Shown here piece after piece: positions 27,450 through 33,292 of a stretch of DNA of 64,000 bases. Position 1 is the stretch's first letter; the number at the start of each line of letters is the position of its first letter. The stretch spans positions 960,001-1,024,000 of the forward strand of contig CBDAOY010000007.1 of NCBI GenBank assembly GCA_965198225.1, read 5' to 3'. The notes beneath the pieces are model-generated. The model was not told where the DNA came from and searched no databases. It saw nothing but the letters and a program-made list of their open reading frames with translations. Both the position numbers and the translations under genes were made by a program. The DNA comes from Terriglobia bacterium. GTDB lineage: Bacteria; Acidobacteriota; Terriglobia; 20CM-2-55-15.

Positions 27450-28135
27450 CAGCGATTTTCTATCGCTCGGTAGAGCAGCCGCTCGAACCCCTCGACCCCG
27501 GGCGGAAGGTCGATCGGGAACCCATCGACGAAGAAAGAGGGTACCGAGGCGATCGCGAGTTCCCGGGCTCGAGCCACATCTTCGAGTACCCGCGATTCCA
27601 CCGACGTGTCGCGCATCGATCGCATAAAGCGGTCCTGGTTCAGATCCAGGCCGGCGGCGTAGCTCACGAAGAGGGCTTCGGGATTGGGGGACCGGGCCCA
27701 GGTGTCCTGGTTTTCGAACAACAGGTCGTGCATCTCCCAGAAACGGCCCTGTTCACGCGCGGCTTCGGCCGCGACGGCCGCTGCCATCGCGTTGGGGTGG
27801 ATGCCCACGAGGGGGAAGTGGTGGAATTCCAGCTGGACCTCGGACGGGTACCGCTCGAACAGTTCCATGACGATCTCGTGGTAGGCCCTGCAGGCCGGAC
27901 ACTGATAGTCGCCGAACTCGACCAGCTTCAAGGCGGCGTCCTCGGCCCCGCGAATTCCGCCCGTCGCGGGAATGGCGACTGGAGCGTCCGCCCCAACCGC
28001 AGAGGCCTGTTCTTCGCCGGCCCCGCGAGACAGAAAAACGGCAATCGCCAGGGCCGCGCCGATGCCCAGGACCAGGATTGCGAACGGTTTCGTGGACGGT
28101 TTCTTGGTGGTCTTGGTCCGTGATTTCTTCGCCAT
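27449..28135 (-). CDS. Membrane-anchored DsbA-family thioredoxin
   Basis: EFGDYQCPAC, HFPL and VPSFF (cis-Pro loop); adjacent to the VKOR gene. Confidence 0.92.
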   Translation of the reverse strand: MAKKSRTKTTKKPSTKPFAILVLGIGAALAIAVFLSRGAGEEQASAVGADAPVAIPATGGIRGAEDAALKLVEFGDYQCPACRAYHEIVMELFERYPSEVQLEFHHFPLVGIHPNAMAAAVAAEAAREQGRFWEMHDLLFENQDTWARSPNPEALFVSYAAGLDLNQDRFMRSMRDTSVESRVLEDVARARELAIASVPSFFVDGFPIDLPPGVEGFERLLYRAIENR

Positions 28136-28476
28136 GGCCCTAATACTACCCAAAGATACTTGAAATTTGCAGAAGCAATCAGCCTTCAGCGTTCACCTTC
28201 TTAAGAAGACCCTCGGCGTTCGATTCCTGTCTGAAAGCTGACCGCTGATCGCTGGCCGCACGCTTGATGCCCGCAATCTCAGAGCAAACCCTCAGACCTG
28301 GGGATCAAGCGTTTGGCACCCTTCGATTCGCTGCGTTACCGTTTCTGAAGCCCGAACCTGCCAGGCCCCGGAGGCGGCTGTCCAGTGCCACTGGTGCCCG
28401 AGCGGGCCGGATTCGTTCCCGGACTGGTGTCTGAGCAACTTCCAGGTCAAAAAATACATCAAAGTGTAAAAAACCC

Positions 28477-28505
28477 TTGCAATAAGGGTGTCACAGGTTA
28501 AGAAT
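28477..28505 (+). promoter_or_regulatory. Putative sigma70 promoter with an A-tract UP element
   Basis: TGTAAAAAA upstream; TTGCAA-17 nt-AAGAAT. Confidence 0.5.
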
Positions 28506-28511
28506 GCCTAT

Positions 28512-28710
28512 GGTCTCGAATCGAGACTGAATTTCTTCTAGTGAGTAAAAGGCTACTCCAGCCAGGGACGGTAGTCGGCTGCATCGGGTGCCAGGAGGCT
28601 GAGGCGGGACGGATCCCGGGCGAAACGGATTTCGCGATCAGAGCCACGACGTAGACGGTGAAGGCTAGAGGAAAAGCCTCACGGCGTAGGAAGCGCCGTG
28701 AGGCTTTTTT
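28512..28710 (+). ncRNA. Candidate sRNA of about 200 nt with multiple GGA-loop hairpins (CsrB/RsmZ-like)
   Basis: Bounded by a promoter and terminator, no convincing ORF; hairpins GCC-AGGA-GGC, GGGA-CGGA-TCCC, CGAAA-CGGA-TTTCG and others. Confidence 0.6.
28672..28710 (+). terminator. Rho-independent terminator
   Basis: AAAAGCCTCACGGCG-TAGGAAG-CGCCGTGAGGCTTTTTT. Confidence 0.9.
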
Positions 28711-28950
28711 AATGCAGTATTCGGTAGTCAGTAGTCAGCTACGTTCCGGCATCGCGAGGATGCCCCAACTGCTGGGTTCGGTATCCGTACAGTCACTCAA
28801 CTTGCAGCCGAAGCCTGACCACAAACAACTTTCGTCAATGCGATATAGTAGTCAGCAGTCGGTTTGTGCGCGACCGGCTACTGATTGCCTGCCAAGAAAC
28901 AGTAGCTTGCCCGCAATTCCAGCACGCAACTGACTACCGAATACTTCCCC

Positions 28951-29349
28951 ATGGCATACACTGATGAACACGCAAAATCGGGGATCGATACAGACCTTCC
29001 GGAGATCGAGTGCTGGCCGAATCAGTTTCCGGGCTACGACATCAGTATCTCCATTCCCGAGTTCACCTCGATCTGCCCTAAGACCGGGCTCCCGGATTTC
29101 GGGCTGATCACAATCGAATACGAGCCGGACGCGCGATGTCTCGAGCTGAAGTCATTGAAGACCTACGTGCTGGCCTACCGGGACCTCGGTATCTTCTACG
29201 AGAACGCGGTGAATCGAATGCTGAGGGACATCGTCAGGGCCTGCTCGCCGGTTCGAGCGAAGGTGAGGGGGGATTTCAACGCCCGGGGCGGGATGCGGGC
29301 CGTCGTGGAGGTCCGGTACGATCGTGCCGGCGGTGGTTCGGACAATTGA
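28951..29349 (+). CDS. queF: PreQ1 synthase (7-cyano-7-deazaguanine reductase)
   Basis: PEFTSICPKTGLPDF, ELKSLK and FNARGG motifs. Confidence 0.95.
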   Translation: MAYTDEHAKSGIDTDLPEIECWPNQFPGYDISISIPEFTSICPKTGLPDFGLITIEYEPDARCLELKSLKTYVLAYRDLGIFYENAVNRMLRDIVRACSPVRAKVRGDFNARGGMRAVVEVRYDRAGGGSDN

Positions 29350-29355
29350 CTCCAC

Positions 29356-29874
29356 TCAGGAAGGCCGCCGGCCGCGTTGACTTTTCTTTTTCCTGTCGTC
29401 GCGGTAGATGATCCACTCTTCCTCCAGATCTGCGACCTCTCGTTCACCCAGCAGGTAGTCCCAGAAGAAACTCATGAAGTCAGCCCGGGACCCGCCGTCG
29501 GCGAGAATCTCTTTGAGTTCGTCGTCGGTCCGACCGAACACCTGTGCCGCCGCGTCCATCTTGAGGTACAAGTTCTCGATGTCGAGTTCGGCGCGGACCA
29601 TCTCATCGCCCAGGCCCTGGTAAAGGCGTCCCTCGAGCCGCCTCATGAACCGGCGGAGCACAGTGGCGTTCGCCACCGAGTCGAACTGCGCGCGCTTCAT
29701 CCACTCGATGTTGAGAGGATCGCGGTTTCTGTGATTGATGGCGGGCCACAGGCGGTCCCAGTCAAGGTCGAGCAGACCGACAGGATTGCCGTCGACTTCG
29801 ACGACCACCTGGACTTTAGAAGGCCGTGATTTCTTCGATGGCGTTCGCTTCGATGTCCTCTGCTTTTGAGCCAT
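29356..29874 (-). CDS. Hypothetical protein
   Basis: 172-aa ORF 6 nt downstream of transketolase on the same strand; no family recognised. Confidence 0.7.
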   Translation of the reverse strand: MAQKQRTSKRTPSKKSRPSKVQVVVEVDGNPVGLLDLDWDRLWPAINHRNRDPLNIEWMKRAQFDSVANATVLRRFMRRLEGRLYQGLGDEMVRAELDIENLYLKMDAAAQVFGRTDDELKEILADGGSRADFMSFFWDYLLGEREVADLEEEWIIYRDDRKKKSQRGRRPS

Positions 29875-33205: not shown

Positions 33206-33292
33206 CGGAGAGGGTGGGATTCGAACCCACGGTGGAGTCACCCCCACACCGGTTTTCGAGACCGGCCTGTTCAACCGCTCCAGCACCTCTCC
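33206..33292 (-). tRNA. tRNA-Ser (anticodon CGA), CCA not encoded
   Basis: GGAGAGG acceptor stem, anticodon arm CCGGT-CTCGAAA-ACCGG, long variable arm, GGTTCGAATCC T-arm. Confidence 0.97.

Follow-up and report, generated by a model that had tools for sequence, protein, structure and literature searches.

Among the systems closest to the RNA locus described here, which lies at positions 28477-28710 (+) of a 64,000-nucleotide (nt) stretch of DNA from a Terriglobia bacterium (the whole stretch is called the window below), are the Csr/Rsm small RNAs (sRNAs) and the FliW-CsrA-flagellin switch. The Csr/Rsm sRNAs of Gammaproteobacteria (RsmY/RsmZ/RsmX and CsrB/CsrC, Rfam clan CL00106) are standalone genes with a strong promoter and an intrinsic terminator. 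In them GGA is conserved at several sites, part of these in the 6-nt loops of short stems, and they occur as paralogous copies in genomes with csrA. According to the parts of PMC4682653 and PMC13407953 drawn on here, sRNAs that antagonize CsrA are essentially gammaproteobacterial and the antagonist found elsewhere is FliW. In the same parts of these papers, and in those of PMC7652899, the FliW-CsrA-flagellin system works without sRNAs, and whether sRNAs and FliW ever act together is left open. BarA-UvrY is described as anti-correlated with fliW (PMC4682653, in the part used).

The window locus is very probably an independent structured sRNA gene whose family is new. Our best reading, to which we give roughly even chances on the strength of sequence comparison, is that it encodes a trans-acting, lineage-restricted sRNA of about 200 nt which binds CsrA, pairs with other RNAs and belongs to the flagellar circuit. 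Taken separately, a functional role in pairing for its most conserved hairpin, P2, appears probable, and binding of CsrA at the GGA sites is slightly favoured. The RNA shares with the Csr/Rsm sRNAs all the traits listed above. It differs from them in having no sequence or structure match to their models, in coming from another phylum (Acidobacteriota, according to record titles), in having only about five sites and in adopting a closed multi-helix fold. Moreover, the CsrA of this organism is linked to FliW, the promoters are either of the sigma-70 type with an A-tract or of the sigma-54 type, and a 28-nt invariant hairpin is complementary to other RNAs. With the FliW-CsrA-flagellin switch of Bacillus subtilis and Campylobacter jejuni, the organism shares a flgL-fliW-csrA operon and flagellin leaders carrying a GGA hairpin and a GGA-containing Shine-Dalgarno sequence; it differs in possessing a GGA-rich sRNA complementary to a flagellin 3′ untranslated region (UTR).

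The RNA is found in a single family. A blastn search recovered the region from 20 of 23 further members of the family and from essentially none of 17 genomes of other families, the one exception matching the terminator alone. A covariance model, R1, built from 18 sequences matched 30 of 34 genomes of this Terriglobia family and, across another 12 families of the class, none of 130. When one genome per species was scanned with an exact pattern, the 22 stretches obtained carried the titles Terriglobia, Acidobacteria, Solibacteraceae or Candidatus Sulfopaludibacter. The model and pattern distributions therefore indicate a family-restricted acidobacterial RNA, apparently confined to one family of soil and sponge Acidobacteria. 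Two types of copy were distinguished: type A, which has a sigma-70-type promoter and includes the window copy, and type B, whose promoters are of the sigma-54 type.

No Rfam model matched the RNA at gathering thresholds, whether of a Csr-type or of an unrelated family. At E<=10 the sole Csr-type match was CsrC, which is at noise level (9.5 bits vs a gathering threshold of 279; E = 9.1). The RNA belongs to no Rfam Csr/Rsm family, and our claim is that it works like these RNAs, not that it is a member of them. No paper describing it was found in the full-text literature, subscription journals and supplementary files lying outside the search. The initial annotation, drawn from the sequence alone, had spoken of an undescribed RNA, and in this it was right.

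The features of the locus are as follows; P denotes helices and S the GGA sites.

28449-28454 and 28468-28473 (within 28449-28473), + strand: two A-tracts, UP-element-like, 5′ of the -35 box; read in the sequence.
28477-28482, + strand: -35 box TTGCAA; sequence and comparison among type-A copies.
28500-28505, + strand: -10 box AAGAAT, after a 17-nt spacer from the -35 box; comparison among type-A copies.
28512-28528, + strand: P0, 5′ hairpin GGTCTCG-AAT-CGAGACT in the minimum-free-energy fold; GTCTC..GAGAC is present in most relatives.
28533-28541, + strand: 5′ strand of P1, the closing stem, TTCTTCTAG; UA<->CG and CG<->UA exchanges at two pairs.
28551-28576, + strand: P2, near-invariant hairpin GGCTACTCC-AGCCAG-GGA-CG-GTAGTC, bearing GGA site S1 and complementary to the partner sRNA and to flagellar UTR hairpins.
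28579-28588, + strand: 5′ strand of P3; all 8 pairs changed on both sides, 69% of cells paired.
28593-28596, + strand: S2, AGGA in the internal loop between P3 and P4; GGA in 43/45 copies, with variable flanks.
28599-28602, + strand: 5′ strand of P4, CTGA, partner 28638-28641; all 4 pairs changed on both sides, 90.9% of cells paired.
28606-28617, + strand: P5, hairpin GGG-ACGGAT-CCC with GGA site S3 in its 6-nt loop; 97% of stem cells paired, with a CG exchange.
28620-28635, + strand: P6, hairpin GCGAA-ACGGAT-TTCGC with GGA site S4 in its 6-nt loop; all 5 pairs changed on both sides.
28638-28654, + strand: 3′ strands of P4 (28638-28641) and P3 (28644-28654); comparative.
28660-28664, + strand: S5, GAAGG; relatives carry GAAGGAGAC, the window copy being three bases short in the alignment of 45 copies.
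28665-28673, + strand: 3′ strand of P1, CTAGAGGAA; comparative.
28672-28710, + strand: intrinsic terminator, an inverted repeat with 15-nt perfect arms (28672-28686 / 28694-28708), loop TAGGAAG, then T6.

The six helices are supported by comparison. In a MAFFT alignment, which was not fitted to the model, 82.6% of cells are paired vs 33-50% in slid controls, and 20 of 40 pairs have changed on both sides. The 45 model-aligned copies give 84.9% vs 29-49%, with 25 of the 40 pairs changed on both sides and none of 500 shuffles matching the observed pairing values; since this alignment was fitted to the model and the genomes are related, its figures lean toward structure. Covariation in the core is carried by P1, P3, P4 and P6. 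The exchanges in P1, whose consensus strands are TTCYTCTAG and CTAGRGGAA, split 20 vs 20 sequences, and only 69% of P3 cells are paired because the register differs among subgroups. P2 shows no covariation in the 45-copy alignment. It is instead the most conserved part of the RNA, its sequence CCAGGGACG being kept in 41 of 45 copies. The consensus would be a closed fold of several helices, in which the 5′ hairpin P0 is followed by the closing stem P1, by P2, by a P3-P4 arm bearing the twin hairpins P5 and P6, and by the terminator. Several helices meet at a junction with invariant junction bases. On the RNA strand the predicted fold has an energy of -88.5 kcal/mol vs a shuffle mean of -67.7 (z = -4.9), and none of 200 shuffles was as good.

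All literal features of the initial annotation are present at the coordinates it gave, and those that define a gene have held up. An A-tract lies ahead of the -35 box in 26 of the 28 copies of type A, and the promoter pattern (TTGnnn, a spacer of 16-18 nt, mostly 17, and nAnnAW) is kept in 26 of 28 as well; the transcript would be expected to start near 28511-28513. Over the roughly 200 nt that follow, said to lack a credible open reading frame (ORF), the sole ORFs are of 37 amino acids (+) and 49 amino acids (-), and indels of 1 and 2 nt separate close relatives within this region. The terminator, described as strong, has a stem that covaries among relatives. A simple scan with consensus promoter and terminator patterns called neither the promoter nor the terminator of the RNA, the latter probably because its A/U stem ends absorb the T-run. 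Metatranscriptome contigs from four runs of one study cover only 28533-28686, at a word depth of 10-84, and pieces on the spacer and queF, the gene downstream, have a word depth of 2-4; these are contigs and not reads, and uncovered parts count for nothing. Before 28533-28551 and after 28638-28665 their sequence departs from that of the window, and they may therefore stem from related strains or other copies. Their coverage is a weak hint that the transcript is separate from that of queF.

The number of GGA motifs says little. The window RNA contains 7, the shuffle mean is 6.97 and 1194 of 2000 shuffles reach 7, so that GGA enrichment in the single sequence was rejected as evidence; the genome holds 46 tandem GGA-loop hairpins, vs about 32 expected by our own arithmetic. 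Their conservation is another matter. Each of the five sites S1-S5 is kept in 43-44 of 45 copies while flanking bases vary: GGA is found in 44 copies at S3, in 43 at S4 and in 44 at S5, which lies ahead of the 3′ strand of P1 and for which the window copy is the single exception. The hairpins P5 and P6 have stems of 3-5 bp and 6-nt A-N-GGA-N loops lying 16 nt apart. CsrA sites selected by SELEX place GGA in 6-nt loops on stems of at most 4 bp, and a CsrA dimer may bridge sites 10-63 nt apart, as stated in the part of the review PMC7652899 used here. Both the form and the spacing of the P5 and P6 loops agree with this SELEX picture and bridging range.

The initial annotation had arranged six GGA motifs along a string of serial hairpins. 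Its two hairpins GGGA-CGGA-TCCC (28606-28617) and CGAAA-CGGA-TTTCG (28621-28634) are the twin hairpins P5 and P6, whose loops are kept and whose stems covary in homologues. The string itself gives way to the closed multi-helix fold, and three of the six motifs are paired or not conserved. The hairpin GGCTAC..GTAGTC (28551-28576) exists and is near-invariant, although its GGA is predicted to pair with UCC; in GCC-AGGA-GGC the AGGA persists in 43 of 45 copies within an internal loop, although the hairpin proposed around it is not conserved. The extra GAGGA at 28668 is no free motif since it forms part of the 3′ strand of the closing stem, and the GGA in the terminator loop is retained by no more than about 13 of 27 relatives, counted by eye. 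The proposal of a sponge RNA for CsrA or another GGA-binding protein is supported in part, by a discrete noncoding gene with conserved GGA loops.

A dual hairpin of the kind recognized by ANTAR proteins consists of adjacent hexaloop hairpins with A1 and G4 in the loops, the second overlapping a terminator. This candidate was rejected: the P5 and P6 loops fit A1/G4, yet G3 and A5 are conserved too, and P6, which P4, P3 and P1 enclose, is separated from the terminator by about 40 nt.

The genome contains csrA, whose presence the initial annotation had left to be checked, both in a flgL-fliW-csrA operon and as an orphan paralogue. From reading of the translation, the first CsrA keeps R44 and N55. 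CsrA occurs in 32 of 34 genomes of the family and elsewhere in the class only in families f3 (4/20) and f5 (13/19). Four of five flagellin leaders carry a hairpin with an A(A/G)GGA-type loop located 20-30 nt before a GGAGGA Shine-Dalgarno sequence, which is the classical two-site CsrA layout. Since the loop type of P5 and P6 is that of these flagellin-leader sites, we infer that the RNA binds CsrA dimers.

P2 has partners elsewhere in the genome. Four non-self complements of 14-16 nt were found in the window genome vs about 0.8 expected (own arithmetic). One lies 24 nt after the flagellin stop codon, in a G-run/C-run hairpin of the 3′UTR; the others lie in the flaG-fliD spacer before fliD (FliD by Pfam), in the 3′UTR of a VTT-domain gene and in a small hairpin RNA downstream of a fabH-like gene. 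A 13-mer pattern of P2 gave 53 matches in the 34 genomes vs 4 for a backwards control; 38 of these are the RNA genes themselves and 10 of the 15 extra matches fall in the fabH-linked sRNA. Six of 30 distinct flagellin 3′UTRs, from genera g1, g3 and g10, carry a P2 complement of at least 12 nt (g, G and L numbers are our labels for genera, genomes and loci). These hairpins agree best with type-B P2, and the same three genera are those with type-B copies.

The fabH-linked RNA, hereafter the partner sRNA, was found downstream of fabH in 11 of 11 loci (loci with the partner sRNA: L098-L103, L105-L108, L115-L125, L205, L206); in the window genome it lies at about C5:379720-379925 (+). It has a conserved promoter-like upstream element, a long covarying stem and a T-run, and carries the P2 complement in its apical loop. 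It occurs in 9 of 11 genera: in g1, g3 and g10 by blastn, in g7, g8, g9 and g11 by pattern, and in g2 and g5 by inspection downstream of fabH. In the three genomes of genus g4 examined it is absent downstream of fabH, and the larger RNA is likewise absent there. Within single genomes, P2 and the partner loop are perfectly complementary over 12-19 nt in 20 of 21 cases (control median 7, maximum 9), the exception being G018, in which P2 is mutated. Changes on both RNAs in G043, G010 and G019 lengthen or strengthen the duplex, which hints at co-evolution between unlinked loci. When whole molecules were compared by duplexfold, shuffled targets scored alike. Neither type B, the partner sRNA nor the flagellin 3′UTR element gave a usable Rfam match, the best scores (Phe_leader, 31.9 vs a gathering threshold of 55; BSnc120, 27.7 vs 114) being read as noise. 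As P2 is both the most conserved part of the RNA and complementary to other RNAs, base pairing is probably part of the mechanism, and pairing with these partners in the cell is what we infer from the conserved complements.

Two further observations concern these regions. The 150 nt between fabH and the partner sRNA (C5:379559-379708) constitute a dispersed repeat with 13 matches including its own locus. A 13.7-kb contig of another genome (G020:C19; L104/L173) is 99% identical to the flagellin region of the window genome (C9:549240-549499) although the genus differs; this may reflect a binning mix-up or a recent transfer.

The 16 type-B copies score 54-78 bits and come from genera g1, g3 and g10. 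Fifteen of them have a sigma-54-like TGGC-N8-KGC element at -52 to -56 (background 0.026 per 90 nt), and rpoN was present in all five genomes checked. Type-B copies share a conserved leader, have their own terminator each and often form two or three tandem units. They have no co-oriented gene close downstream, and the genes around them are of various kinds (NhaA, DUF1800, old yellow enzyme, HAD and MBL-fold genes). GlmY/GlmZ and Qrr1-5 are known sets of homologous sRNAs with sigma-54 promoters. As in these, homologous sRNAs here stand under promoters of more than one kind, sigma-70 in type A and sigma-54 in type B, are present in several or tandem copies and share an invariant segment; unlike them, there is no sequence relation and the partners are an antisense-like sRNA and flagellar UTR hairpins. 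The sigma-54-driven paralogues of some genera suggest that the same RNA can in addition be made on a signal.

In the type-B loci L024 and L055-L062 (G001-G003, G005, G012, G015, G020, G046 and G047) the tandem units are about 400 nt long, and the gene that cuts the last unit in G003 is taken as a transposase, judged by size and position. The g10 array is divergent from an ORF of 349-363 amino acids (L056:1509-2558 (-), L057:3206-4297 (+)), whose copy in G020 has a C-terminal PTPS (QueD-type) domain. This second link to the queuosine pathway is possibly coincidental.

Together these observations would fit the following scheme. The RNA is transcribed from its own sigma-70-type promoter and ends at its own terminator, as the comparison among relatives shows, with queF as a separate and probably leaderless unit. 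Its five GGA sites would bind CsrA dimers, titrating or scaffolding them as RsmY, RsmZ and CsrB do. P2 would pair over 12-19 nt with the apical loop of the partner sRNA and also with the hairpins in the flagellin 3′UTR and the flaG-fliD spacer. The complements in flagellar UTRs tie the RNA to late flagellar messages, and the two activities combined would place it in the late-flagellar CsrA-FliW circuit.

Several observations weigh against this scheme. The RNA and csrA co-occur only loosely: csrA is present without an RNA match in G022 and G048 and with nothing but a truncated RNA copy in G044, G006 has a weak RNA-like match of 32 bits and no csrA match, and in family f5 the RNA is found in 0 of 19 genomes, 13 of which have csrA; G016 has neither. 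The canonical CsrA here is linked to FliW, a type with no known sRNA antagonist, and the orphan paralogue reads T where E. coli CsrA has R44. The GGA count of the window copy is at chance level, in a genome where tandem GGA-loop hairpins are frequent; for S1 pairing is predicted, and the window copy lacks the GGA of S5. With its closed multi-helix fold and its invariant hairpin of 28 nt, the RNA does not resemble known sponges. The complementary site ahead of fliD was not conserved in 29 other fliD loci and may thus be specific to the window genome. No type-B copy was found in the window genome with the covariance model, and yet its flagellin 3′UTR hairpin fits the type-B P2 consensus over 20 nt. 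Finally, the genomes of the family are related and hence are not independent samples, and the RNA evidence consists of contigs from a single study which diverge outside the core.

The main rival keeps the pairing of P2 and drops CsrA: the RNA would be a purely base-pairing sRNA or RNA sponge with P2 as its seed, and the GGA loops would be there for folding, for tertiary contacts or for some protein besides CsrA. The strong conservation of P2, complements that exceed chance and change together with P2, the joint loss of the RNA and the partner sRNA in genus g4, the likeness of the multi-copy sigma-54 paralogues with their invariant segment to Qrr-type sRNAs and the loose link to csrA all suit this explanation. 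Against it stand the retention of GGA at five sites amid variable neighbouring loop bases and the form that the P5 and P6 loops share with the flagellin-leader hairpins and the SELEX consensus; nor was a conserved UCC partner for the loops identified, although no systematic search was made. We regard it as possible, though clearly less likely than our best reading. Another job for a structured RNA, as a decoy for a different GGA-binding protein or as a catalytic or scaffold RNA of whose larger fold the GGA and P2 features would form just a part, seems unlikely: the junction of helices with its invariant bases and the want of an Rfam relative would suit it, but nothing points to a particular other partner, and the links to flagellar messages and CsrA-type loops are specific. 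6S RNA was considered and rejected, there being no RF00013 match at the locus; 6S is encoded elsewhere (C6:230181-230371, 64.4 bits), so this role is already filled in the genome, which can be read in favour of a different job. That motifs have clustered by chance in a long spacer which holds no RNA gene has practically no probability. The ordinary GGA count and tandem hairpins of the single sequence would be expected of such a cluster; the conservation in 30 of 34 genomes of the RNA along with a promoter, helices that covary and a terminator, and its occurrence in RNA libraries, would not.

The initial annotation had offered as its alternative a leader or attenuator of queF, and in this form the RNA would be a cis-acting leader, attenuator or riboswitch whose terminator is switched by preQ1, preQ0 or a protein. 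The locus lies in an 800-nt spacer, with a divergent DsbA-like/VKOR gene pair on one side and queF (28951-29349; Pfam) on the other. In 27 of 28 type-A loci the RNA is directly 5′ of queF on the same strand, with a gap from the T-run of 17-240 nt (median 87) that is only 17-39 nt in 12 of the 27, an arrangement which speaks for a leader; all six neighbour genes of the locus are, however, syntenic in relatives anyway. Genus g4 also lends the idea some weight, since queF there stands directly behind tkt on the same strand (L087-L090, L053), three genomes (G016, G022, G048) have no RNA and a fourth (G049) has a degenerate one that is convergent with queF. So does G044 (L091), in which an internal deletion has taken out P3-P6 together with most of the terminator but spared the promoter and the 5′ part. 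On the other hand, an extended -10 box of the TGnTAnnnT type precedes the queF start codon by 5-8 nt in 24 of 27 loci (by eye), as in leaderless messages that have a promoter of their own, and queF is probably such a separate unit. No conserved or covarying antiterminator between the RNA and queF was seen by eye; the one candidate, UGAGGC in P4 with GCCUCA in the terminator, was dropped as it showed no covariation in G002 or G012 (by eye). The 16 type-B copies, with promoters and terminators of their own, stand in tandem before convergent or distant genes. The PreQ1-I, -II and -III models were unmatched at E<=10 over 28100-29000. The RNA resembles preQ1 riboswitches I-III in being a structured RNA beside a queuosine-pathway gene; it differs from them in matching no model, in being much larger and in having its own terminator followed by a queF promoter, and its paralogues are unlinked to que genes, apart from the divergent PTPS-domain gene in g10. 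On this evidence a role as a queF leader is most improbable, and the CsrA-binding, base-pairing sRNA remains our preferred reading.

Some features of the surrounding sequence may be recorded. The region around the queF start in the window (28930-28953) is one of the three with no clear extended -10 box, and the starts across L026-L052 are GTG or ATG. A 17-nt perfect inverted repeat (28716-28732 / 28929-28945) flanks about 200 nt between the terminator and queF, and its arm has short matches at three other places in the genome. The segment 28716-28945 may be a small inserted element, which would explain a spacer of 240 nt here vs the median of 87. Between queF and tkt, a conserved ORF of 172 amino acids (29356-29874 (-)) has no Pfam family and is syntenic in most relatives. 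The sole Rfam match at gathering level in the window is an 87-nt tRNA gene whose variable arm is long (33206-33292 (-)).

The RNA may be the first RNA partner of CsrA where control is thought to be protein-only. A broader and more speculative view, which we hold only tentatively, is that of a three-layer RNA circuit which this acidobacterial family would run atop the FliW-CsrA switch, in which the sRNAs titrate CsrA and dock on flagellin messages and on the partner sRNA. Type A would be constitutive and type B multi-copy and driven by sigma-54; loop-loop duplexes of 12-20 nt would connect them to flagellin messages and a dedicated partner sRNA, so that RNA sponging, RNA-RNA pairing and FliW would all act on CsrA. 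If this view is true, it would be the first case of sRNAs and FliW acting jointly on CsrA and the first Csr-type sRNA outside the Proteobacteria. For the Acidobacteria, a phylum with very few annotated sRNAs (four in Table 1 of PMC9029176, the part used here), the data add two unrecorded RNA families, a GGA-rich RNA with sigma-70 and sigma-54 forms and its complementary partner sRNA. With a defined sequence, mutable sites, two CsrA paralogues and candidate RNA partners, they make the question of joint control by sRNAs and FliW testable.

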